Shown here: positions 51,602-63,999 of the stretch, piece after piece
Position numbering within the stretch: position 1 is the stretch's first letter
Layout of the letters: each line of letters starts with the position of its first letter
Assembly: GCA_963710605.1 (NCBI GenBank)
Contig: CAVQBA010000004.1
Location: 480,001 to 544,000 of the forward strand
Origin: an uncultured cyanobacterium
GTDB lineage: Bacteria > Cyanobacteriota > Cyanobacteriia > Cyanobacteriales > Cyanobacteriaceae
Length of the DNA: 64,000 bases
Direction of reading: 5' to 3'
The notes under the pieces: generated by a model
What the model saw: the letters and a program-made list of their open reading frames with translations, nothing else
Databases searched by the model: none
What the model was told of the DNA's origin: nothing
Made by a program: the position numbers and the translations under genes

Positions 51602-52093
51602 ATGAAAGCTAGAGAAATTATTCAAATTATTATTTTTATTCTGATAGGTTTAGCATTTATGTTTGGACTACAACCTTATTTATTTGATCAAAGAATACTA
51701 TTTGGAGTAGTAAGGAGTGTCACCTATAGTGAATGGATTGAGCAATATACCCTAGCCGCCGCAATTATCTTCGGTATTTCTGTTATTTTCACCATAATTT
51801 GGTGTGTGTTATTGTTAAAAAACCAAGATGGTAGTTACAGTACATGGAAAGCAGTTTGGTATGTTGGTTTATTTGTCTTAACCCTAATTGTGATTGGCAC
51901 AGTTTATATCAACAATCAAGATGACAATGGCGAATTGATTAGAGAAACTTTTATGCCGATGACACTCTGGCTTTTATTTGATTCATTATTTTTGCTTTAT
52001 TGGCTACCCACAGTAACTAGTACGCCCGGATTGTTAAAGAAAAAAGCAGTACCCGGAGCAATTTTAATTAATGATTTAATTGGCAGAAATTGA
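51602..52093 (+). CDS. 4-TM membrane protein, first gene of tubulin-like cluster
   Basis: Four hydrophobic segments; 33 bp from the next gene. Confidence 0.75.
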   Translation: MKAREIIQIIIFILIGLAFMFGLQPYLFDQRILFGVVRSVTYSEWIEQYTLAAAIIFGISVIFTIIWCVLLLKNQDGSYSTWKAVWYVGLFVLTLIVIGTVYINNQDDNGELIRETFMPMTLWLLFDSLFLLYWLPTVTSTPGLLKKKAVPGAILINDLIGRN

Positions 52094-52126: not shown

Positions 52127-53624
52127 ATGGCTTTTTATGTAGTCGGGATAGGTGGCACAGGTGCAAAATGTATTGAGGCAATTATTCAACTAGCTTCTGT
52201 GGGTTTGTTTCCCACTAATAAGCTTAAAGTAATGTTTGTTGATGCTGATGAAACTAATGGTAACTTACAAAGAACACAGACTAGTTTAGGTATTTATCAA
52301 AAATGTCATCAATTACTCAGCGGTAAACATGATGAATGTGATTGGATGACAACTAATATTGAATCTTACTCAGTTTGGTCTCCTTTTGGTAATAAAAATA
52401 CGGATAAAAAACTTGGTTCTTTTTTTGGTTACAATACTTTAAAACAACAAAACCCAGCTTTAGCTAGCTTATTTGATGTTTTATACACTGAAGATGAACG
52501 AAAAGTATCTTTAGAAGTCGGTTTTAGAGGTCGTCCTGCGATCGGTTCTGGTATAATGACTCAGATTGATTCTCGATCGTTTAGAAGAAGAACCATGGCG
52601 TAGTTTCATCAACGAAATTGTCAACAATTCTAGTAGCGGTGGTGAAACCAAAGTATTGCTTTGTGGTTCAATTTTTGGTGGTACAGGTGCATCAGGCTTA
52701 CCCACGATCGGTAGATTAATTGCGAATAAGTTAGAAAAAGAAGGTGTTAGAGAGAAAGTTAAATTAGGTTGTATCTTCGCATTACCTTACTTTAATTTTC
52801 CGAAAGGCTCAGCTAATGAACAAGTTTATGCAAGTTCAGATTTATTTTTACTTAACACCGAAGCCGCTCTTAGGTATTATCGAGAGCAAGCTCAACAATT
52901 TGATGCTAAATATTTAATCGGGAATCAAACCTTTGAAAAACTAGGCGAATTCAGCATTGGGAAAGATACCCAAATTAATCGCCCTCACTTTGTTGAGTTT
53001 TATGCAGCCTTAGCCGCCCGTAACTTTTTTTGTGAGCAACCTGAAGAAGCTGTACACGTTATCAGTCGTCATCAGACAGGTTTACTCCGATGGGATGATA
53101 TACCGAATAGTAATGAAGTCAAAAGCAAATTAGTCAATGCCACTCGTTTTGCTTTTATTTGGTTAGCTGATTTTCAGTTTCAATTACAACTAGGTAAAAA
53201 TCAAGGTATAGGTGAATTAAACGGGTTAGGTTGGTTTGATAAATTTTTTCAAGGAAAAGCTCTATTTAGGAAAACCAGAACACATTTACCTGACTTGAGT
53301 GAAGCTCAACAACAAGAAGCGATTAAAACGATCGATAATTGGTGTCAAGACTACTTACGCTGGCTAAGTGATATTCATATTTGTGATAGCGAAAAAATCG
53401 AGTTATTTAAAGCCCGTGAGCATTTTCTTAATGGTAGAGGATTGAAACCCGAAAACTTCGCCGATTTGTTATTTGACGAATCTCGTACTAAAGATGATTT
53501 AACACAAGATAACCTTGTCAAACTCAAAAATACAATTTCAGAATTGGATACAACTAAATTTGGCGAACCAAATCAGGGAGTAGCAGGATTAGCTAAAGCA
53601 GTCTATGTTTGTTGCAAATTATAA
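52127..53624 (+). CDS. Divergent tubulin/FtsZ-superfamily GTPase (Tubulin_2-like, ~498 aa), split by a +1 frameshift at ~52570
   Basis: VVGIGGTG, DAD, GFRGRPAIG, GSIFGGTGASG signature; span 1497+1 bp; AGGAG RBS at 52112. Confidence 0.85.
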
Positions 53625-53784: not shown

Positions 53785-56700
53785 ATGGCAGATTTAATCT
53801 TATCCAAACTAAAAGACGACACCAATATTACTAAAGGGCAACCAGCACAATGGGAAGCCCGAAGTGATAAAGCATTTAGAGACGTAGCCGATAGTCTTGA
53901 TTATCAAGCCCCCGGTGTGATCAAAAATGTTAGTTCAGTACCGACAATGTGGGCTCGCCCTCTGATTACTGAAATGGCTTTATATGATCAAAATCACCCG
54001 ATTCATGAGGCGATGGTAGCTCAATGGCGAGGAATGTTAGCTGTTATTGCATTAGCAGAGATAGAAGGATTTGATCTCCAAGTTCAACTAATCGACTTAA
54101 GCACTCAACGTTATCAACCCTTTGGTGAAGCACTTTATCAACTTATTCCCGAACCAATCAATGCCCTTTATACCAGAGAAGGTAAAAACCCGTGGGAAGA
54201 AGTCTATGTTTTTGTCTGGCAAGGTAAACCAGTAGGTATGACCAGCCCTAGTACTCTTGTCTGTCCATCCGAAGAAGGAAAATGGACAGGATTACGTTGG
54301 TGGCAAAATGGTATGATTCAAAGCCCCGAACCATTTTTGAACGAAGAATCAAAAGAACTACTTTGGCGATGGTTAGAAAATATTCAAAATAATCTTACTA
54401 CTTATAATGGCTCTTCTGTAGCTGTTAATAAAATGATTGGTTTGATTGTTCAATTTAGAACCGATTTAGCAATTGAGAATTCCGCACCTGCCCCTTTAAA
54501 TTTAAGTACTAATCCTAACTTTTTTGGTGAGCCAATCAATCGAGGTGCATTAGTTTTACTTAATAACCCCGTGCGAATACCGCCTCAACCTTCAAACCTT
54601 AGAGTAATCCCTAGTGCAGTTAAAACTAGTGTTAAACCCCTAATTATTATTGACGAACAAATAGCTGATTTTTGGGGGCAACCTAAACAAAATATTTGGG
54701 TACATCAAGATAAAACTTTGGCTTCATTAAATATTGAAGATTTAAAAAACGGTAGGTTAGTTTGGGATGATGTTAACTGGATTACTTCTGCTGAATTATT
54801 TCTTGAAGAATTATATTTTATTGATTTAGATGATGCTTTACCTGGTGCTATCGTACCTCAATCAAATATTCCCCTTACTTTTAACAGTGAAAAAGTTACG
54901 CCTTTAATTCCCCTTAATCCCATCTTGTTAGACTATTTCACCCCAGAAGACTTGGTTAGTCATATTGAAATTGAACCATTTAACAATATTAATGGGCAGG
55001 GGTTACGACTAATTCTCAATTTGCCCTTATCAGGTATAGCCAATCAGAAACAATTTCAAGCTTATCGTCTGCAAAAAGAATATATTTTACATGAAGAAAA
55101 CGCTTTTAAATATTTACCTGTTTTAACTTTATGGCCGAATTTTCGATCGACTAACTGGCAACAATATTATACATTTTATTACGATGGTGATTATGGTGAT
55201 GAAACCTTCCGTGTTTTTGTACCTAATCAGGAAGTACGTCAATTCAAAGCCCCTGATGGTACAGGCTCGTATCAACTAGCTACAATGAACCAAATGCCTA
55301 GTCATGTAGTCTGTAAGGATAGTTACTACAAAGATATCGGTTTAATTCTGTTACCGACACTACCAGAAATAAATTCTCGTGGTAAGTGGAATGTAGGGGT
55401 TGATTTTGGTACTTCTTTTACTAATGTTTATGTCAAGGGCGAAAATACAGGTGATTTTCCTTTAGAGATGAATAAAGAATTACAATTGAATATTACCGAA
55501 AGCCCTATCCAGACTCGTTTACCTGCTTTACTTGAAAGTTTTGTTCCTGAAAAGTTTTTACCTTCAGAAGAGCCTTTACCTCTATCTACAGTATTAACTA
55601 CTAAAAACGGTAATGTTGATGATGGAGAATTACAAGCGATTCTTGATGGACGTATGTATGTACCAGATCCAACTGAATTTGATCCGAATAAACAATGGAT
55701 AAAGTTAGATTTAAAATGGTCAAATCTGAAATATTCTAAAGCCTTTTTACGTCATTTGTGTTTACATATTTCGGCTTTAGCCACTCAAGCGGGGATGAAT
55801 AGTATTGACTGGTGTATTTCTTATCCTAGTGCTTTTGCTTATGTCGATCGACTTACATTTCATCGTAATTGGCAAGAAATCGGTGAAGAATTAGCACCAA
55901 AGACTGGTATAAGTTATTCTTGCCCTGACATTGATGATACTCAACGTTTTTGTACTGAGAGTGTGGCTTTAGCTCAATATTTTAATGATAAAGAAAAACA
56001 TCCTTTAGTTTTAAATACTTGTATTGATATGGGTGGTGGCACATCGGATGTATCTATTTGGGAAAATCGTCGTATTGTTTATCAATGTTCGGTTTTATTT
56101 GCAGGTAGAAATATTTTCTCCGAAATTTTAGCCCTTAATCCTCCTTATGCTCAAAAATTAATGGCGGAATTTAGAATCAATAAAGATTGGACAGATTTGG
56201 GTGAAGTTTCGATCATGACTAATATTGATGTAGCCTTAAGACATTATGCAGAAGAATGGTTAGCTCAACAACGAGTTTATAAAAATGATGATACTTATTT
56301 CCAACGTTTAGTTACTCTAACCGCTTTAGGTGTAGCTGGTTTATATTATTATATTGGTCTAATTTTAAAAGTACTTCATACTGAAGGTAAATATAGTAAA
56401 GCCCAAATTACACCTGTTTATATTGGTGGTAATGCGTCTCGTTTTTTACATTGGCTTTCACCAACTGGTAAATACGATCAAAATTCAGAGTTTAATCAAT
56501 TGTTGAGTTTGATGTTAAGTAAGGCTTCTGGTTTTGAAGATAGTCAGGAAAAAACTCGTCTTAGCACTCGCCCTAAACATGAAGTCGCTTGTGGTTTGGT
56601 TTTAAGTAATACTCAATTAGTGGGAATGACAGAAAATAGCGATTGAGATCCTATTGCAGGAGAGAATTATTATGTAGAATATTATGATGATGATAATGAC

Positions 56701-57120
56701 ATTGAATATAAAGAAGAAAAAAGTTCTCATTCTCGTCTCCATTTTCAAGGTAACATAACTGATTTCAAAATAGATAAGTTAGATAATCTCGAAAAATTTT
56801 TATATGAGTTTAATGCAGGAATAAAAACTCTTAAAATTCAAAGTATCAAACCTCTAGCAAAATCAGATTACAAATTACAAAAACCTCAAGATAAAGATAA
56901 AAATCAAGATAAGGATAATTATAATCTTGAGAAGGACGAAACTACGACTAAAGACAAAAATAGTGAGCTTTGGAAAGATGTAAAATACCATCTTGAAAAT
57001 GAGTTATTAGATGTAAGAGGAGATGCCACTAAACTCGGTGAAAAAACTCCTTTTATTATGGGTTTGAAATCTCTTTTACATACTTTGGGTAAACGTTGGG
57101 CTGATTCTTACAAAGAATAA
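53785..57120 (+). CDS. Large actin/Hsp70-fold ATPase (~1111 aa) with an in-frame TGA at 56644-56646
   Basis: GVDFGTS, ESVA, IDMGGGTSD, YIGGNASR, PKHEVACG actin-fold motifs; frame stays open for 157 codons after the TGA to TAA 57118-57120. Confidence 0.82.
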
Positions 57121-57121
57121 A

Positions 57122-57168
57122 TTAGAATTCGGAATTCGGAATTCGGAATTCCGAATTTGGAATTCTAA
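57122..57168. repeat. Palindromic (CGGAATT)n heptamer array
   Basis: TTAGAATTC-GGAATTC...GAATTCTAA. Confidence 0.75.
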
Positions 57169-57253
57169 CTAAAGAAAATTAAAAATAAGAAATATTAATT
57201 CTCAATTCTCCACTTGTACTGAGCGTTAGTCGAAGTATTCTCAATTCATAAAG

Positions 57254-58012
57254 ATGTCTGTTTCTCAAACTAAAAAATGTCCTATTTGTGATACGCCTTA
57301 TACTCAAAGTCAAAAGCGATGTAGTCAATGTAGTTGGGATTTGACATTGTATCACGATGGTTTTTTGTCGAACGAGCAATCATTGAAAGTTCATATTTCA
57401 GCTCGAAAAATTTATAGTTATCTACAAAAATATCGTGAAATGGTTAAACAAATGCAACAAAAAATAAAATTGTCTCAAAAAAAAGAAGATGATTTACATG
57501 ATGAAAACGATCGATTAAAGCAAGAATTAGAGGAATCAAAACTATTACCATTACAAATATATGAACTTGAATTACAAATTAATAAGTTACAAACACAAAT
57601 TAAACAACTAGAGTCAGAAAAAAGAGAAAATCAGATTGAAGTTAATCAAAGTTTGGAACAATATGTAATAAATCAAGATAATCGAAATACTAGTTTTGTG
57701 TCTAAAAAAGGAATTCAAGTAACACCGACTAAAAAAAGTTTAGAAGATATTTATTTGAATAAAGCAGATGAAATCGTTTTTGAGGTATCGAATCAAAATG
57801 ATTATTGGATAGTAGAATTAGAATCAACAGTTTATTGTTTATTACCAAATAAAAATTTAGATATTAAACGTAACTTGAAAGCGATTAGACATTTTTTTGA
57901 ATTAGTTGATTATCAAGATAATACAACTTGGGAAGTGGTTAAATTAGCTTTAGTTGAAAAAATAAATATCGATTGATGGAAGTTTAAAACACAAGGTATT
58001 TTACAGTTTTGA
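57254..58012 (+). CDS. Zn-ribbon - coiled coil - shared C-terminal domain protein (paralog 1); internal TGA at 57974-57976
   Basis: CPIC...CSQCSWDL; conserved tail WKFKTQGILQF lies after the TGA. Confidence 0.78.
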
Positions 58013-58051
58013 TTATTACTAAATAACAATAAGTTATCTTACTATGAAATT

Positions 58052-58822
58052 ATGTCTTCTACTCACACTAAACAATGTCCAATTTGTGATTCAACTTGTT
58101 TATCGACAGAAACAGTTTGTACAAAATGTGGCTGGGATTTAACAATCAATCATGATTGTCATCTAGATGAAAAAATATTGCAGAAAATTCAAACAGTAAC
58201 TCGTAATGTTTATCAAAAATTCAGAAGATTAACGAAACGTTATCGCCAAGAAAGAAATGAATTAAAAACTCAAATGGATGAAATTAAAGATTTACCAAAA
58301 CAAATGTTTCAATTGCAACTACATGCTTCTAAATTAAAAAAAGAAAACGATCGATTGAAACAAGAAATAGAAAAATTACAAGTTGACAAGTTGAAGACGC
58401 AAATTGAACAATTTGACGATAAAAAAAGTAAAGACAAAATGAAGGTTGAAGAAAATATAGAGCAACATTCGATCGTTCAAGATTATCAAAATACTGATTT
58501 TTTAATGAAAAATGGTATTAAAGTAACGCCTACAAAAAAAACCTTAAAAGATATTTACTTAAATACAGTTAAGGAGATTATTTTCTATCCTGCTAAAGGT
58601 AATGATTATTGGATAGTGGAATTAGAATCAGGAATTTATGGTTTACTACCAAATGAAAATCTTGATATTAAGCGTAACTTAAAAGCGATTAGATATTTTT
58701 TTGAATTGATTGATTATGATGATAATTCTACTTCTACTTGTAAAGTGATTAAATTAGCTCAAGTTGAGAAAATAAATATCGATTGATGGAAGTTTAAAAC
58801 ACAAGGTATTTTACAGTTTTGA
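58052..58822 (+). CDS. Zn-ribbon - coiled coil - shared domain protein (paralog 2, chimeric); internal TGA at 58784-58786
   Basis: CPIC...CTKCGWDL; the same post-TGA tail WKFKTQGILQF. Confidence 0.78.
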
Positions 58823-58861
58823 TCATTACTAAACAACACTAAGTTATTCTACTATGAAATT

Positions 58862-59791
58862 ATGTCTTCTACTATTTACCCTAAAAAATGTCCAATTTGT
58901 GATTCAACTTGTTTATCGACAGAAACAGTTTGTACAAAATGTGGCTGGGATTTAACTTTGAATCATGATTATCATCATCTAGATGAAAAAATATTGCAGA
59001 AAACTCAAACAGCAACTCGTATTGTTTATCAAAAACTAAAAAAACTAACGAGCCGTTATCGCCAAGAAAGAGATGAATTAAGAACTCAAATGGATGAAAT
59101 AAAAGATTTACCACAACAAGTATTTGAATTACAATTACGGATTTCAGAGTTAGAAAAAGAAATAGAATCATCGTCTTTACAACAAAAAGATATTGAGCAA
59201 TTAAAGCAAGAAATATTATTAGAATTAGAAAATAAATTTAGAGATATTATTGAAAGACAAAATTTACAATCCACAGCACCTTCATCTAATGTTTTAAAAG
59301 AAAATTTCAAACAAGAAGAAAACGATAATATTCGAGCGACTGAAGATATTGATAACACTGAAAACAAACAAGAAAAAAACGATCGACATGATAATCAGCA
59401 ACCACAAATAAATAATAATGAAGAGAGTTATGTTATTAGAGAGTATTCTCAAAATACTAAAGTTTTCTCTCAATATACTTATAAAGTTACACTAACAAAA
59501 AAATGTTTAGAAAATATTTATATTAATAGAGCAAATGAAATTATATTTGAAATTTCTAATCAAAGTGATTATTGGGTATTTAATCACAATACAATACATT
59601 GCTATTTGTTACCAAAATTAGATTTTAAAATTAATATTAATATTAAAGCAGTAAGAACAATCTTTGAGTTACAACAATATAAAGAAAATAATACTTCTAA
59701 GCAATTTTTAGTTACCAAACCTGCTCGTGTTCAAGAAATAGACAATCAAAAGTGGAAATTAATCGAGCGAGGTATTCTCAGTTTTAACTAA
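58862..59791 (+). CDS. Zn-ribbon - coiled coil - shared domain protein (paralog 3)
   Basis: CPIC...CTKCGWDL; ends KPARV...KWKLIERGILSFN. Confidence 0.85.
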   Translation: MSSTIYPKKCPICDSTCLSTETVCTKCGWDLTLNHDYHHLDEKILQKTQTATRIVYQKLKKLTSRYRQERDELRTQMDEIKDLPQQVFELQLRISELEKEIESSSLQQKDIEQLKQEILLELENKFRDIIERQNLQSTAPSSNVLKENFKQEENDNIRATEDIDNTENKQEKNDRHDNQQPQINNNEESYVIREYSQNTKVFSQYTYKVTLTKKCLENIYINRANEIIFEISNQSDYWVFNHNTIHCYLLPKLDFKININIKAVRTIFELQQYKENNTSKQFLVTKPARVQEIDNQKWKLIERGILSFN

Positions 59792-59823
59792 TTTATTATT
59801 AATATTATTATGAAAAATAAAGT

Positions 59824-59940
59824 ACAAAATAATCCCCCTCTATCCCCCTTTCAAAGGGGGAAGGTTAAGGATACTTCACTTTTGTTTGAGGGGAGACTTA
59901 CAAATAATGAATGTACATCATAATGATGAAAAATTCTATA
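59824..59940. mobile_element. Truncated MITE copy flanked by a 30-bp direct repeat
   Basis: Matches 23730-23824; repeats at 59794-59823 and 59939-59968. Confidence 0.7.
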
Positions 59941-59954
59941 TTATTAATATTATT

Positions 59955-61454
59955 ATGAAAAATAAAGTTATTCAATTAATTATTATCGGCTTTTTTTTAC
60001 CTATATTTTTAAATAGTTGTAATCAAAATAATCAGCAAACTAACCAAACTAAAAGTGAGGAAGAAAAAATAGCTGAAGTAGTTACTATCGAAGAAAAATG
60101 GAGTGATGAAAAACAACAATTATACGATACTCTTAAACAAGAATATATTGCTTTTAATCAATATTTACAGCCTGAAAGCGATTTACTAAATCTGTTTGAA
60201 GAGCAAAGTAAAACTTCACCAACTAATATTGAGTTTAATCCTTCAAATCCAGATACAAATGAAATAGTTAATTTTACCGAGCAATACCAAAAGTTTTTTG
60301 ATTCTATTAGTGAATTAGAACAAGAATTTCCTGTAGAGCAACAAAATGTAGTTGAAAATATAGCTACGCAACTGAAGCAGTCTTCTGAAGATAATATTAG
60401 TTTAGCATCGATTGAATCTTTATTAGATGACCAGCAACTAACTCAAACAGAAATTTGTGAAAATATACAACTACCTTTACAAATAATAACTCAACAAAAT
60501 GACCCTGATTGTGGTATTTTTGGTCAGCAAACTTATACCGAATTAACTAATTTTTTAATACAAGAAAATCAAGAATTAGAATTTAAAATTAATCAACTAG
60601 ATACGATTGTAACACAACTTAAAAACTCCGAGCAAGAATCTTTAAATTCTAATATTAATCAAAATAAAGATAAAACAAATATTACTCAAAGTAAAGTAAA
60701 AACTGATAATTCGTTACCTATAGTTTTGCTTACTATTACTATTATTTTTAGTGTATTAAGTTTAATTGCTAGTATCTTCAACTATTTAGCAATTAAAAAA
60801 TTAAAAACAAGCAATCAACAAGCTAATGAAAATATAGATGAAAATAACAAAACAGAAATTGAACAATTAAAGTCTCAGATTGACAGCTATCTAGAAAAAA
60901 TAGCAATATTTGAAAGTAATACTCAAAAAATTCAAAATACTTTAGAAAATCAATCTATCACAATAAGAGAATTAGAAAATAAAAATCAACCTAAAAATAT
61001 AAACCCTTCTCGTATTAATAACTTACCGCCACAAAAATTATCTTCTAATTCCGAGGTATCAACAAATACTCATTTAGCACAAATTTATCAGCAAAATCCT
61101 AATAACCTACTACAAAATGGAACAAAAGTGGGTATGACAAAACAAACCACTAACAAAATTTTAGGTGGTGTATGGGATAATATTTTTTTAGAAGAAAATA
61201 GACGTACAGGAGAATACATAATTGTTAATCGTAATAACAGCGATAATAACAAATGTTATCTGTTTTTAGATCCTCATTCAATGTTTAATCCTCAGACTTT
61301 GGGTACTATTCATAAATCAGGTTTATTTGTTTGTCATGGTAACTTAGCCCAAAGTAGAAAGGGAGGTGAAATTACCATCAATAAACCCGCAACCGTAAAC
61401 AAAACACAACAAGGCTGGATGTTGATAGAAGCAGGAGAAATTAGTTTACCTTAA
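59955..61454 (+). CDS. Putative lipoprotein with internal TM helix, coiled coil and C-terminal shared domain
   Basis: MKNKVIQLIIIGFFLPIFLNSC lipobox (ATG 59955 preferred over TTG 59886); TM LPIVLL...IFNYL; ends KPATV...GWMLIEAGEISLP. Confidence 0.78.
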   Translation: MKNKVIQLIIIGFFLPIFLNSCNQNNQQTNQTKSEEEKIAEVVTIEEKWSDEKQQLYDTLKQEYIAFNQYLQPESDLLNLFEEQSKTSPTNIEFNPSNPDTNEIVNFTEQYQKFFDSISELEQEFPVEQQNVVENIATQLKQSSEDNISLASIESLLDDQQLTQTEICENIQLPLQIITQQNDPDCGIFGQQTYTELTNFLIQENQELEFKINQLDTIVTQLKNSEQESLNSNINQNKDKTNITQSKVKTDNSLPIVLLTITIIFSVLSLIASIFNYLAIKKLKTSNQQANENIDENNKTEIEQLKSQIDSYLEKIAIFESNTQKIQNTLENQSITIRELENKNQPKNINPSRINNLPPQKLSSNSEVSTNTHLAQIYQQNPNNLLQNGTKVGMTKQTTNKILGGVWDNIFLEENRRTGEYIIVNRNNSDNNKCYLFLDPHSMFNPQTLGTIHKSGLFVCHGNLAQSRKGGEITINKPATVNKTQQGWMLIEAGEISLP

Positions 61455-61577
61455 ATCGAATTAATTAATTATTGATAATTAATCTCTCATTATGTATTTA
61501 TCTTATAATTAGTCAAATAGTAATAATACTTAAAAAAATTAAAGTAAGTAAAATTTTTTTTGTTTGTAATTTAGATT

Positions 61578-62858
61578 ATGACGCAATCTTCTTATGATAA
61601 TGAATCTCAGCTAGAGCCTATTTATGATAAAATTCAACAACTAGATAAAAAGCTACAAAATTTAGAAAAATCTAGCCAGAAAGTAATCGTTACTGGAGGT
61701 AAGAAAAACTTTCAGCCAAAACCGCTATTCGTCAGCCAAGAAGAATTAATTAATTTATATAATTATTTACCAAATACATTGCTTGAGTATATTACTCCTG
61801 TTAATGTTACTGCTGATACCTACAGAGCAAAAACAAATAATAAAGTATATTTAGAATATAATTTGAATGGTTATTATTGGGTGATTTTAACTGAATCTGA
61901 ATCTCAAAAAGATTGTTGGTTAGTACCTAATGCCAATCGTAGAAATAATTTTCATCGTTTGCAAGACAAAATAAAATCTCTATTTATTATTCAAGGAAAT
62001 TTAGATAGTTATGATTATATTTTACAAAAACCAGCAAAAATAGAAATTTTTTCCAACGGTTTAAGATGGATTTTGATTAAGCAAGGTTGTTTACAAATAG
62101 GTAAAACTTCTCCTGCTGAGCAACTAATTAAAAAAATAGAAAATATTGAAAATAATAAAAACAAAGAAATACCAGAAATTATTATTATTAATAGTCAAAA
62201 CAAGATTAGTAAATTAAGTAATCAAATTAAAGAATATCAACAAAAAATTAATTCATTAGAAAATAATATTTATAAGCTTCAGCAAACTATAGAAAGTAAC
62301 TTATTAAGATTAAACAAATTAGAAAATCTAAATTTAAATCAAAATTACGACAATTGTTCATTATTACAACAATTAAAACAAGAAATATTATTAGAATTAG
62401 ATAATAAATTAAAAATAATTATTTCTCAACAAAATATTAATAGTTCTCAAGTAAAAAAAGAACATAATCATCAACTACAAATAAATAGTAAAGAAGAAAA
62501 AAAATTAATTAAATATTATTATTATAAAAGCGAAAAATTAGCTCACTATGGCTATAGAGTTACGTTAACTATAGAAAGTTTGGAAGATATTTACGCAAAT
62601 AGAGTAAATAAAATTATTTTTGAAAAATTTGCTCAAAGTAATTATTGTATATTTAAACTAAAGTCAGAAATTTACTATTTATTACCTGAATTTAATTTTA
62701 AAATTAGGACTAATATTAAAAGCCTAAAAACAATTTTTACAATTAAAAATTATAGAGATAACATTTCTAAACAATTTGAAGTTATTAAACCTGCCCATGT
62801 TAAAAAAATAAAATCTGACAAATGGGAATTAACAAAGCGAGGAATTCTCGAATTTTAA
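61578..62858 (+). CDS. Coiled-coil protein with two copies of the shared domain (chimeric)
   Basis: N-half nearly identical to 62947..63999; C-half resembles paralog 3. Confidence 0.82.
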   Translation: MTQSSYDNESQLEPIYDKIQQLDKKLQNLEKSSQKVIVTGGKKNFQPKPLFVSQEELINLYNYLPNTLLEYITPVNVTADTYRAKTNNKVYLEYNLNGYYWVILTESESQKDCWLVPNANRRNNFHRLQDKIKSLFIIQGNLDSYDYILQKPAKIEIFSNGLRWILIKQGCLQIGKTSPAEQLIKKIENIENNKNKEIPEIIIINSQNKISKLSNQIKEYQQKINSLENNIYKLQQTIESNLLRLNKLENLNLNQNYDNCSLLQQLKQEILLELDNKLKIIISQQNINSSQVKKEHNHQLQINSKEEKKLIKYYYYKSEKLAHYGYRVTLTIESLEDIYANRVNKIIFEKFAQSNYCIFKLKSEIYYLLPEFNFKIRTNIKSLKTIFTIKNYRDNISKQFEVIKPAHVKKIKSDKWELTKRGILEF

Positions 62859-62946
62859 CTTAGAACGATCGCTTTTTGTCTTTACGATAAAAATAAAATT
62901 ATTAAATTAACTATTACTTATATTATCTCTATTTCTAATTTAGATT

Positions 62947-63999
62947 ATGACGCAATCTTCTTATGATAATGAATCTCAGCTAGAGCCTATTTATGATAAA
63001 ATTCAACAACTAGATAAAAAGCTACAAAATTTAGAAAAATCTAGCCAAAAAGTAATTGTTACGGGTGGTAAAAAAGACTTTCAGCCAAAACCGCTATTTG
63101 TTAGCCAAGAAGAATTAATTAATCTCTACAATTATTTACCGAATATATTACTCGAATATATTACGCCTGTTAGTATTACAGCAGATACTTACAGAGCAAA
63201 AACTAATAATAATATTTATTTGGAATATAACTTAAATGGTCACTATTGGGTGATTTTAACTGAATACGAATCTCATAAAAATTATTGGTTAGTACCTAAT
63301 GCCAATAGAAAAAATAATTTTCACCGTTTACAAGATAGAATAAAATCTTTATTTATTATTCAAGGAGATTTAAATAGTTATAATTATACGTTAGAAAAAC
63401 TAGCAGGAATTGAAATTTTAGCTGATGGTTTAAAATGGTATTTAATTGAAAAAGGTTATTTACAGATAGGCAAAACTTCTCCGATAGAACAACTTATTAA
63501 AAAGCTAGAAAAACTAAAAACTGAAAATGGTGAAATACCGCAAAATATTATTGGTTTAGTTGAATCTATTGATTTATATTATCAAAAAACTTTAAATATT
63601 GAAAAAGAACAAAAAGAGCTAACAAAAGCAGTAGTTAAAATAACTGATATAATAATTACTAATAATAATAAGTTAACTAAAACAACTAATAAACTAGAAC
63701 AAACTATTCATAAGTTAGAGAAAGAAGTTTATCAAACGATTGATCATAATCAACAACAAAATTTAGAAAATTTAGCAACTTTTGAACAAAACTTTGAACA
63801 AAAAATAAAAATAATTAGTACTAAAGTAAGCGAAAATTACCAAGAAAAACAAATATTAAGAGATGATTATGAAAAACTAAATAAAGATTTTAAACAACAA
63901 CAAAGAAAAGTTAAAAACATTAATAGTAATCTTGGTTGTCTTAATTTTTTACTCATCGTAGTAGTCTTAGTTTTATCAATAATTTTAATTAATATATAA
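62947..63999 (+). CDS. Shared domain - coiled coil - C-terminal TM (tail-anchored) protein
   Basis: N-terminus MTQSSYDNESQLEP...; ends LNFLLIVVVLVLSIILINI. Confidence 0.82.
   Translation: MTQSSYDNESQLEPIYDKIQQLDKKLQNLEKSSQKVIVTGGKKDFQPKPLFVSQEELINLYNYLPNILLEYITPVSITADTYRAKTNNNIYLEYNLNGHYWVILTEYESHKNYWLVPNANRKNNFHRLQDRIKSLFIIQGDLNSYNYTLEKLAGIEILADGLKWYLIEKGYLQIGKTSPIEQLIKKLEKLKTENGEIPQNIIGLVESIDLYYQKTLNIEKEQKELTKAVVKITDIIITNNNKLTKTTNKLEQTIHKLEKEVYQTIDHNQQQNLENLATFEQNFEQKIKIISTKVSENYQEKQILRDDYEKLNKDFKQQQRKVKNINSNLGCLNFLLIVVVLVLSIILINI

Follow-up and report, generated by a model that had tools for sequence, protein, structure and literature searches.

Bacterial tubulin- and actin-like proteins have usually been understood via their adaptors: FtsA, ZipA and SepF for FtsZ, ParR for ParM and TubR for TubZ. 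In the FtsZ–FtsA pair, the gene for a tubulin-fold GTPase stands beside that for an actin-fold ATPase, and the ATPase links the GTPase to the membrane and to further proteins. Previous work on FtsZl1/Tubulin_2 neighborhoods described operons in which a divergent FtsZ/tubulin protein is accompanied by membrane proteins and by lineage-specific genes without assigned function, and proposed a membrane-associated complex (Makarova and Koonin, 2010; PMC2875224). Others have described the effector-associated domains (EADs) of NTP-dependent conflict systems and, in the same work, GAP1-N2 DO-GTPase systems, which those authors read as a regulated cytoskeleton-like assembly (Kaur, Burroughs, Iyer and Aravind, 2020; PMC7159879).

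The window analyzed here (the whole 64,000-nucleotide stretch) holds a predicted tubulin-like and actin-like gene pair followed by six tandem genes that share a ~115-aa domain, for which we use the working name DOM (Table 1). A sequence-only reading had noted seven copies of an unnamed domain in six adjacent genes (57254-63999), and this is upheld, as the copies align over ~115 columns and carry the motif it had described. Among the 23,522 stop-to-stop open reading frames (ORFs) of this genome (G000), an HMM of the seven copies matched the six genes and one gene elsewhere (G000:C4:800651-801739, two copies, E 1.3e-16 and 2.6e-8), with the next best match at E 0.19. A profile built from 44 copies of other genomes only recovered exactly nine copies in the same search space—seven in the window and two in the distant gene—at domain E values of 4.3e-13 to 1.4e-29, and nothing else below E 1. 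Within this genome the signal between subtypes is marginal: a C-type HMM reached E 0.11 for the divergent copy of the gene starting at 59886/59955 and 0.22 for an N-type copy, an N-type HMM reached E 1.3e-3 for the divergent copy, and the copies of the distant gene bridge the two subtypes.

Table 1. Conserved gene set and DOM array in the window. Domain coordinates are in parentheses; coiled coils, lipobox and superfamily assignments are predictions.
Feature	Position	Strand	Open reading frame	Basis or remark
Small multi-pass membrane protein, 163 aa, first gene of conserved set	51602..52093	+		No Pfam family
Predicted tubulin/FtsZ-like GTPase gene, split by frameshift	52127..53624	+		Tubulin_2 matches in orthologues
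Predicted large actin/Hsp70-fold (ASKHA-like) protein gene, in-frame TGA	53785..57121	+		Weak FtsA/MreB_Mbl matches in alignment
Zinc ribbon - coiled coil - C-type DOM copy 1 (57674-57973)	57254..58012	+	57254-57976	TGA 57974-57976; last 11 domain codons 57977-58009
Zinc ribbon - coiled coil - C-type DOM copy 2 (58484-58783)	58052..58822	+	58052-58786	TGA 58784-58786; last 11 domain codons 58787-58819
Zinc ribbon - coiled coil - C-type DOM copy 3 (59447-59788), intact	58862..59791	+	58862-59791	DOM profile; Pfam DZR_2
Putative lipobox-like signal (FLNSC) - ~250-aa outer part - TM helix - coiled coil - C-type DOM copy 4, divergent (61086-61451)	59955..61454	+	59886/59955-61454	DOM profile
Leader helix - N-type DOM copy 5 (61728-62111) - coiled coil - C-type DOM copy 6 (62514-62855)	61578..62858	+	61578-62858	DOM profile
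Leader helix - N-type DOM copy 7 (63097-63480) - coiled coil - C-terminal TM anchor	62947..63999	+	62947-63999	DOM profile

The architectures in the array are less varied than the sequence-only reading had held. It had placed each copy on a different module, yet three of the six partner modules are one type of zinc ribbon (CxxC...CxxC, in the 57254, 58052 and 58862 genes; in the last, Pfam DZR_2 matches residues 4-31 at E 2.2e-4, under the curated cut-off). The C-terminal copies it had assigned to the 57254 and 58052 genes are present but cut by an in-frame TGA, so that their final 11 codons (W.F...G.L.F) lie downstream in frame. Its coiled-coil linkers remain predictions, drawn from composition and from weak matches to SMC, Rad50 and KASH coiled-coil families. 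The gene for the putative lipoprotein has its longest ORF from 59886 (522 aa, TM helix near residue 276), and its start at 59955 and its lipobox are our own putative reading of the sequence. The last two genes share 81% identity over their first 203 residues, and the last is complete, with its stop at the window edge.

Upstream of the array, profile and fold evidence place the gene at 52127-53624 in the FtsZ/tubulin superfamily with some confidence. Its orthologues are single frames of ~490-530 aa, and all ten match Pfam Tubulin_2 (best E 1.4e-10) and five of them Tubulin (PF00091); the window copy, in which a frameshift near 52560-52600 leaves ORFs of 158 and 352 aa, has a Pfam match at E 0.004 only. 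GGTGxxG-type motifs are visible, and the AF2 model of an orthologue (pLDDT 76.5) is best matched by FtsZ, CetZ and gamma-tubulin, with FtsZ chains on top in Foldseek (E from 2.6e-4, probability 1.00, ~300 aligned columns, TM-scores of only 0.24-0.41). The predicted actin-like protein consists of a 330-aa N-terminal domain, a core and a tail, and carries phosphate motifs of the DxG (DFGT) and DxGGGT (DxGGGTSD) kinds. In an 11-row alignment, its core was matched by FtsA in nine rows and by MreB_Mbl in seven, all weakly and under curated cut-offs. Orthologues have open frames of ~1085-1105 aa; here, an in-frame TGA (56644-56646) follows 953 codons and precedes 157 more open codons. A homologue of the small membrane protein, whose hydrophobic segments were picked out by eye (a crude scan flagged two), lies by clustering directly upstream of the tubulin-like gene in 9/10 other chromosomal loci, with an 80-aa remnant in the tenth (L035). 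A lipoprotein gene, usually beside the conserved set, encodes a vWA-like DxSxS...TD motif, from which its vWA reading comes, and no Pfam or PDB-profile match was found for it. PDB profile searches with the tubulin-like protein, the actin-like core (FtsA at E 0.3) and the lipoprotein returned nothing significant.

Here, as in FtsZ–FtsA, a tubulin-fold gene adjoins an actin-fold gene. However, both predicted proteins are highly divergent, the actin-like one is three times longer and has an N-terminal domain and a tail, and the organism's own division genes lie elsewhere. We know of no DOM-like adaptor for FtsZ–FtsA. The resemblance to FtsZl1 neighborhoods lies in the divergent FtsZ/tubulin protein, the membrane proteins and the lineage-specific genes without assigned function (PMC2875224), to which the vWA-motif lipoprotein here can be added. 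Yet in the cyanobacterial FtsZl1 neighborhoods shown there, the FtsZl1 proteins are ~910-1127 aa long and stand beside COG2304 vWA and OmpA-family genes, rather than forming a pair of ~500-aa tubulin-like and ~1100-aa actin-like proteins, and the consulted parts of that paper make no mention of DOM (PMC2875224). The GAP1-N2 DO-GTPase systems likewise bring tubulin-superfamily, Hsp70/actin-fold, zinc-ribbon, TM and vWA proteins together in a variable operon; they differ in occurring in Firmicutes and Actinobacteria, in being defined by a DO-GTPase and GAP1, and in keeping the tubulin and HSP70 themes separate (PMC7159879). No P-loop GTPase or GAP1-like gene was seen in the conserved set among the part of the neighboring ORFs that was scanned.

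DOM itself belongs to no named family, as the sequence-only reading had supposed. Neither Pfam nor NCBIfam has a model over DOM in the six window proteins, PADLOC has none in the five scanned (all save that of the 58052 gene) and Pfam none in the 101 relatives scanned of 150 listed; source annotations read "hypothetical protein." The model matches that do occur in DOM proteins are coiled-coil noise or fused WD40, FGE-sulfatase and PG_binding_1 domains outside DOM. Homologous-protein searches for proteins of similar or greater length gave few matches, all "hypothetical protein" or WD40, and the ESM Atlas returned unnamed clusters only (scores 0.92-0.93). A close-relative search found no DOM relative on viral contigs, and a full-text literature search found no paper on DOM or this operon. 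The family counts 877 representative relatives with E<=1e-3, of which 502 reach E<=1e-10, and many of the relatives carry 2-4 copies. The predicted model (pLDDT 88.6, pTM 0.81) is a beta-rich alpha+beta domain with no match at E<=1e-3 in Foldseek against the PDB or in BFVD; VIA-align against 48,161 chains gave a best Z of 2.4 (Z>=2 in 12 chains), and a PDB sequence profile search a best E of 0.037. For a predicted model, this lack of a PDB match is not proof of a new fold. DOM shows no enzyme signature. A basic character of the kind that nucleic-acid binding would suggest was not seen.

We then consider linkage across 401 genomes (G000 and 400 others of the phylum), with DOM detected by profile A3. 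DOM occurs in 36/401, the actin-like protein in 35/401 and the tubulin-like protein in 32/401. Excluding G000, 31 genomes hold both DOM and the actin-like protein, 4 DOM only, 3 the actin-like protein only and 362 neither, counts that overstate independence owing to the kinship of the compared genomes. The link to tubulin-like/actin-like loci proposed by the sequence-only reading is real: in the 400 other genomes, 97/120 DOM matches lie <=10 kb from an actin-like match, with at least one such match in 29/35 genomes. The order is fixed (i.e., small membrane protein, tubulin-like gene, ~1100-aa actin-like gene, DOM array), and order and strand are kept in 11 chromosomal loci (the window and 10 others) and on a plasmid. 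This plasmid (NC_014503.1, 47.5 kb), of Gloeothece verrucosa PCC 7822, carries the whole system, including a membrane-protein homologue, near TIR, WD40 and pentapeptide genes. In two apparent exceptions (G300 and G131), the DOM genes in fact lie directly downstream of the actin-like gene. Actual exceptions are the two-copy gene of this genome, 264 kb from the locus, and a ~550-aa C-type DOM protein unlinked to an actin-like gene in 4/4 genomes searched of one genus, in two of which (G174 and G334) neither the actin-like nor the tubulin-like query matched.

As DOM almost always lies right behind the tubulin-like and actin-like genes, it is probably a coupling piece of a membrane-associated machine. 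Our working reading, held with moderate confidence, is that DOM is a small non-enzymatic alpha+beta protein–protein coupling module of one conserved cyanobacterial gene set; its binding, its partners and its cellular role we infer. Besides the DOM array, this set comprises a lipoprotein with the vWA-like motif, the small multi-pass membrane protein, the divergent tubulin/FtsZ-like GTPase and the predicted actin/Hsp70-fold ATPase of ~1100 aa. We picture each DOM protein as a coiled-coil rod that bears DOM on one end or on both, with a variable head or anchor opposite. The N- and C-type DOM heads may connect these rods to the nucleotide-driven core, to one another, or to both, such that a tubulin-like/actin-like assembly on the cytoplasmic side of the membrane would hold membrane anchors and sensor heads in place.

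The distribution of copies within proteins bears on how such coupling might work. In a survey of 256 near-full-length copies in 158 proteins, 115/256 end <=12 residues from the C-terminus and 109/256 begin within the first 110 residues; N types follow a short leader helix and C types end at a free C-terminus. On the DOM tree, N/C labels need 10 changes, whereas 200 shuffles needed 75 on average and never fewer than 62—a result that shows clustering rather than a probability, since kin share labels—and 91 N, 7 middle and 2 C copies sit together on one branch with support 97. DOM thus divides into two old clades tied to position, N-terminal and C-terminal, which makes a single common site no more likely than two partners or N-to-C pairing. 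Each of the 12 loci examined has a copy near an N-terminus as well as a copy at a C-terminus (the latter detected weakly in L038 and L039). The heads and anchors fused to DOM proteins—zinc ribbon, lipoprotein/TM, tail anchor, WD40 and FGE-sulfatase—are variable, as the sequence-only reading had suggested for its common docking domain, though the domain is not of the single type it had envisaged. That all copies dock on the tubulin-like or actin-like core at a single shared site, with the other ends varying, seems unlikely to us: synteny and co-occurrence with the core genes agree with it, but two position-bound clades kept across genomes, both represented in every locus, would not be expected.

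A natural fusion can be read in more than one way. In L032, a 976-aa protein joins a leader and an N-type DOM (residues 56-177) to an actin-like core and tail, with the DOM part in place of the ~330 residues that normally begin the protein. On the Gloeothece plasmid these two parts are encoded apart, by overlapping genes; overall, DOM sits on an actin-like paralogue in 1/12 loci, and two further loci (L041 and the plasmid) encode the parts side by side. This could be taken as a Rosetta-stone sign of core binding at a common site, but because the fused DOM replaces the actin-like N-terminal domain, a shared third partner fits equally. An hhalign comparison of DOM with that N-terminal domain found no similarity (probability 0.6%), such that simple homotypic coupling to the canonical core is not supported. 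Complex prediction of DOM (121 aa) with a tubulin-like orthologue (498 aa) and with the actin-like N-terminal domain (340 aa) scored 0.00, which gives no answer either way.

If instead DOM heads bound each other (N–C or homotypically), much as head and tail domains do in intermediate-filament-like proteins, the rods might polymerize into their own membrane-attached lattice or filament, and the role of the tubulin-like and actin-like proteins would be limited to regulating or using it. The prevalence of the N-coil-C architecture (the commonest, in 66/158 proteins), the occurrence of up to four copies per protein and the presence of both subtypes in every locus examined suit such a lattice, as does the homotypic coupling proposed for EADs (PMC7159879). 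The subtypes, however, show no complementarity by net charge (median pI 6.6 for N type vs 7.1 for C type), and loci of the most distant group have just one clear and one weak copy; we judge a lattice improbable. We give still less credence, and indeed very little, to DOM as a domain that senses or binds something other than protein (a nucleic acid, a lipid, a piece of cell wall or a metabolite), with the array as receptors rather than adaptors. A fold without known match leaves room for a pocket, and WD40, FGE-sulfatase-like and zinc-ribbon partners are often sensor parts in cyanobacterial conflict systems (PMC7159879). Against this, the nearly invariant residues (Y, L, P, F, A, W, L and G) and the conserved positions at large are mostly hydrophobic or structural, DOM shows no charge bias, and the strict terminal position, two positional subtypes and multiple copies per rod fit coupling better.

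Under the coupling reading, EADs offer the nearest conceptual parallel. Pfam holds EAD models, and no Pfam model of any kind matches DOM, leaving no sign of membership in EAD1-11. Like EADs, DOM is small, non-enzymatic, N- or C-terminal and present in several proteins of adjacent genes; the modules attached to it vary and include WD40-type repeats and FGS (FGE-sulfatase-like) domains, and its copies are closest within a lineage (PMC7159879). The fusion to a core-component paralogue in one genome (L032) is also EAD-like. By contrast, EADs are mostly all-helical (DOM is beta-rich alpha+beta), their cores are MoxR-vWA-VMAP or DO-GTPase-GAP1 rather than a tubulin-like and actin-like pair, and one EAD copy sits on a constant core component (VMAP, GAP1 or similar) and a second on the effector (PMC7159879). 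The canonical tubulin-like and actin-like proteins here carry no DOM, and no enzymatic effector was seen in the DOM arrays.

These data define an unnamed family whose predicted fold matches none of the solved structures searched, and DOM as a recurrent terminal module of accessory proteins in a conserved, unstudied tubulin-like and actin-like operon, which gives a concrete handle on operon function: the domain boundaries, the two subtypes and the natural fusion supply a basis for designing bait and prey constructs. The system is patchily distributed and its loci have decayed repeatedly; together with plasmid carriage and the neighbors found there, this suggests that the system might serve in conflict and not as a housekeeping cytoskeleton. 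Speculatively, and with considerable doubt, the tubulin-like GTPase, giant actin-fold ATPase, membrane and lipoprotein partners and DOM rods might form an undescribed dual-NTPase, membrane-attached cyanobacterial machine, sometimes plasmid-borne, in which N and C types act as plug and socket of a new fold wiring interchangeable heads and anchors to a filament-forming core, be it a new cytoskeletal/positioning device or an assembly-based defense system.

The breaks in this genome have in part a common origin. The 3′ ends and spacers of the 57254 and 58052 genes are ~92% identical (100% around the TGA), and this near-identical tract accounts for their common TGA, which was copied by a single recent duplication or gene conversion. 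Recoding of TGA was considered and rejected (neither a tRNA-Sec nor a TCA anticodon was present among the 39 tRNAs that ARAGORN identified, and the shared TGA traces to the 3′ tract); readthrough is possible. The actin-like tail past its TGA has a dN/dS of 0.18 against an orthologue, and DOM paralogues are under purifying selection (dN/dS 0.19-0.32; 0.19 for the first 203 residues of the 62947 and 61578 genes). In this genome a frameshift and a TGA interrupt the core, and four of the DOM genes remain intact. This means that the core was lost only very recently, or else that the DOM genes can be of use in its absence.

A ~115-aa domain, hereafter DOM, occurs in seven copies across six adjacent plus-strand genes (57254–63999; spacers of only 75–163 bases). 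These copies align with the motif from which the sequence-only reading had counted seven copies in six genes, a count that we confirm. All are connected, directly or via intermediates, in an all-against-all BLASTP comparison, and an HMM built from the seven and run against 23,522 ORFs matches the six genes plus one distant gene with two copies (G000:C4:800651–801739, in the genome of the window, G000), with no further ORF better than E 0.19. The strictest test of the repeat, a profile of 44 copies taken exclusively from other genomes, recovers exactly nine G000 copies (domain E 4.3e-13 to 1.4e-29) and, beyond these, nothing among the G000 ORFs below E 1. The distant gene (L001:1652–2740 in its fetched locus, minus strand) encodes a 362-aa protein with one N-type and one C-type DOM, i.e., one of each of two subtypes named by protein end; it lies 264 kb away from the locus, amid unrelated genes (a sensor kinase, a glucose-1-phosphate adenylyltransferase-like gene) and without tubulin-like or actin-like genes nearby.

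Features of the DOM locus, in coordinates of the window
Feature	Position	Strand	Content
Small multi-pass membrane protein	51602–52093		upstream of DOM genes
Tubulin-like gene	52127–53624		upstream of DOM genes; frameshifted
Large actin-like gene	53785–57121		upstream of DOM genes; in-frame TGA
GAATTCG-type repeat	57126–57170		tandem, partly palindromic (GAATTCGGAATTCGGAATTCGGAATTCCGAATTTGGAATTC); in spacer between actin-like gene and first DOM gene
DOM gene 1	57254 (start)	+	N-terminal CxxC...CxxC zinc ribbon, long polar heptad-rich stretch, C-terminal DOM
DOM gene 2	58052 (start)	+	same arrangement as DOM gene 1
DOM gene 3	58862 (start)	+	same arrangement as DOM gene 1
DOM gene 4	59955 (most likely start, at the lipobox-like signal)	+	lipobox-like signal, ~250-aa outer part, one TM helix, coiled stretch, C-terminal DOM
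DOM gene 5	61578 (start)	+	DOM near N-terminus, second DOM at C-terminus
DOM gene 6	62947 (start)	+	DOM near N-terminus, C-terminal TM anchor

No Pfam, NCBIfam or PADLOC model covers DOM, which bears out the earlier statement that it could not be assigned to a named family. DOM proteins carry the source label "hypothetical protein" in Geminocystis herdmanii, Calothrix sp. NIES-2100 and Calothrix sp. UHCC 0171, and the same RefSeq label on a Gloeothece plasmid. Among 1.84 billion proteins, the DOM profile matches 877 representatives at E ≤ 1e-3, 502 at E ≤ 1e-10 and 50 at E ≤ 1e-30, many of these relatives having two to four copies; fused domains in the 101 relatives scanned were WD40 repeats (n = 7), FGE-sulfatase (n = 1) and PG_binding_1 (n = 1). 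An AlphaFold2 model from a 51-sequence alignment (pLDDT 88.6, pTM 0.81; five models span 85.6–88.6) predicts nine strands and three short helices. With this model, Foldseek returned nothing at E ≤ 1e-3 from PDB and BFVD, and the best Z in an aligner search of 48,161 representative chains was 2.4, to be read beside the aligner's accompanying note that models without a clear match still typically reach Z 7–8; we take this as a predicted structure without a detected known fold, not as proof of a new one. DOM is a new, unnamed domain family within an undescribed conserved operon.

The two subtypes extend well beyond the window, which itself holds two N-type and five C-type copies. A survey of 158 proteins yielded 256 near-full-length copies, of which 115 finish no more than 12 residues from the C-terminus and 109 begin among the first 110 residues; by architecture, 66 proteins are N–C, 32 have C alone and 31 have N alone. 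On a FastTree of the 256 copies the N/C labels require only 10 changes (200 shuffles: mean 75, minimum 62), a figure that comes from few columns for 256 rows and from labels common to kin, and one branch (support 97) unites 91 N copies with 7 middle and 2 C ones. Every WD40 or FGE-sulfatase fusion opens with a DOM copy near the N-terminus. Within G000 alone the subtypes detect one another weakly (E 0.1–0.2), and the copies of the distant gene bridge them.

The gene order is conserved. In the window, 10 other chromosomal loci and the plasmid, the genes run on one strand from membrane protein to tubulin-like to actin-like to DOM array, with a lipoprotein gene usually upstream and divergent. The first array gene has the zinc-ribbon pattern in 7 of these 12 loci, usually followed by a TM–coil–DOM gene and then by proteins with N-type copies; the window, with its three zinc-ribbon genes, shows a local expansion. 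The sixth DOM gene is complete, ending at the window edge, and housekeeping genes come next in the genome. One distant locus, L038 of genome G023, has an insertion between its tubulin-like and actin-like genes: a Uma2-family (restriction-endonuclease-fold) gene at L038:8184–8744.

Co-occurrence was searched in one common sample of 401 genomes of the phylum. DOM was found in 34 of these with the first profile (A1) and in 36 with a deeper one (A3), the actin-like query in 35 and the tubulin-like query in 32, nearly all matching genomes being from the window's own order. With A3 and leaving out G000, 31 genomes have DOM and the actin-like gene, 4 DOM only, 3 the actin-like gene only and 362 neither, and of the 120 DOM matches 97 have an actin-like match within 10 kb; these counts are descriptive, as the genomes are kin. 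The co-occurrence that the sequence-only reading had suggested testing, for Tubulin_2-like genes, is borne out on the actin-like side, 29 of the 35 DOM genomes having at least one DOM match within 10 kb (A3, without G000); the A1 figures are 90 of 111 for matches and 25 of 33 for genomes. Three situations account for the six unlinked genomes. In G122 and G146 (assemblies of 100–120 contigs) the actin-like gene is on other contigs, and G204 and G248, both fragmented assemblies, gave no match to the actin-like query. The remaining two, G174 and G334, come from one genus in which a ~550-aa C-type DOM protein stands apart from the actin-like gene in 4/4 genomes searched (G131, G174, G192, G334); neither core query had a match in G174 and G334. 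G300 and G131 were rejected as exceptions to linkage, since DOM genes lie directly behind their actin-like gene.

Tubulin-like orthologues match Tubulin_2 in 10/10 cases and PF00091 in 5/10, and a fold search with a predicted structure (pLDDT 76.5) places FtsZ, CetZ and gamma-tubulin on top. The actin-like identity is weaker: FtsA is matched by 9 and MreB by 7 of the 11 rows of its alignment (A6), all below curated cut-offs, and phosphate motifs are visible in the sequence. The lipoprotein (~440–520 aa; invariant DGSxS and TD motifs, by which it may be vWA-like) adjoins the set in 10/10 other chromosomal loci. In G000 it is intact on another contig (C7:399849–401357; L042:5837–7357, minus strand), in housekeeping surroundings between hisG and a phytoene-synthase-like gene.

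In one locus DOM is fused to an actin-like core. The 976-aa protein of locus L032 begins with a leader helix and an N-type DOM (residues 56–177), followed by an actin-like core and tail that align with residues 335–1094 of the canonical protein; DOM thereby takes the place of the ~330 residues normally found at the N-terminus. The proteins of DOM genes 5 and 6 in the window start with a leader and DOM closely similar to those of this fusion. With the DOM profile, no similarity to the canonical actin-like N-domain is seen. Matches in L041 and G160:C50 are core-only paralogues without fused DOM that adjoin DOM genes, and on the Gloeothece plasmid a DOM gene overlaps the paralogue's start by 11 bases. 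This plasmid (Cy782204 of Gloeothece verrucosa PCC 7822, NC_014503.1; L043, L044), 47.5 kb and mobilizable, carries a whole system spanning its origin: five DOM proteins (one DOM-WD40) and an 830-aa actin-like core paralogue, with TIR, WD40, pentapeptide and DUF3987 genes as neighbours.

Several genes of the locus are interrupted in G000. The tubulin-like gene has a frameshift near 52560–52600 that leaves ORFs of 158 and 352 aa, and the actin-like gene has an in-frame TGA (56644–56646) after codon 953, followed by 157 more open codons to 57121. As most tubulin-like orthologues, taken from 31 other genomes, are one uninterrupted frame (~490–560 aa), and as actin-like orthologues (~1085–1105 aa) have K or I at the TGA position and continue in frame, the G000 copies are broken. 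The DOM of genes 57254 and 58052 also meets an in-frame TGA (at 57974 and 58784, respectively). Past it, still in frame, come the last 11 domain codons, which include the nearly invariant W, L and G, and then a second stop; the predicted structure puts a terminal beta-hairpin in the lost part. The 3' ends and downstream spacers of these two genes share ~92% DNA identity (100% around the TGA) while the proteins overall are only 46% identical, which makes this a single event, propagated by a recent duplication or by gene conversion. The heptamer CGATTGA at the actin-like TGA is identical to that at the TGA of the two zinc-ribbon genes, which may be chance.

Among 39 tRNAs called by ARAGORN in this 85%-complete assembly there is no tRNA-Sec or other UGA-reading tRNA, nor is a tRNA-Gln called; a "tRNA-Pyl(cta)" at G000:C4:820043–820134 (92 bases, 31.5% GC, weak stems) is probably a false positive. 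Low dN/dS values (0.19–0.32 among DOM paralogues, 0.12 for the actin-like gene, 0.18 for its tail past the TGA) make the breaks look recent, and since ~25 neighbour genes, within the window or flanking it, appear intact, decay in G000 is concentrated in this locus. Core-gene stops or truncations also occur in G059, G274, G180 and G071. In G059 (L045; C1:4678001–4697000) an ORF of 430 aa that matches no Pfam family is inserted in the actin-like gene and splits it; a 107-aa ORF is what remains of the tail, and downstream there is no DOM array.

These data support DOM as a system-specific terminal module of accessory proteins of the tubulin-like/actin-like set. A role in protein coupling would fit the residues it conserves, its position at protein ends, its multiple copies on rod-like proteins and the pattern of its fusions. 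The sequence-only reading had proposed a common docking domain for the tubulin- or actin-fold core: this is partly supported, in that the tie to the set stands, and docking at one site on the core becomes one of three candidates, beside two sites (one per subtype) and N-to-C pairing among the rods.

As for the system as a whole, its parts would suit a membrane-attached device with a cytoskeletal or positioning role. An assembly-based conflict system, of a kind described in the part of Kaur et al. (PMC7159879) considered here, would also fit, given the patchy distribution (DOM in 25/156 genera), carriage on a mobilizable plasmid with TIR, WD40 and pentapeptide neighbours, the fusions to WD40 and FGE-sulfatase domains and the recurrent decay. 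The systems in that part of the paper have defining DO-GTPase/GAP1 or MoxR/vWA/VMAP cores, which the DOM system lacks. Cyanobacterial FtsZl1 neighbourhoods, as they appear in part of the Makarova and Koonin supplement, have a different gene set.
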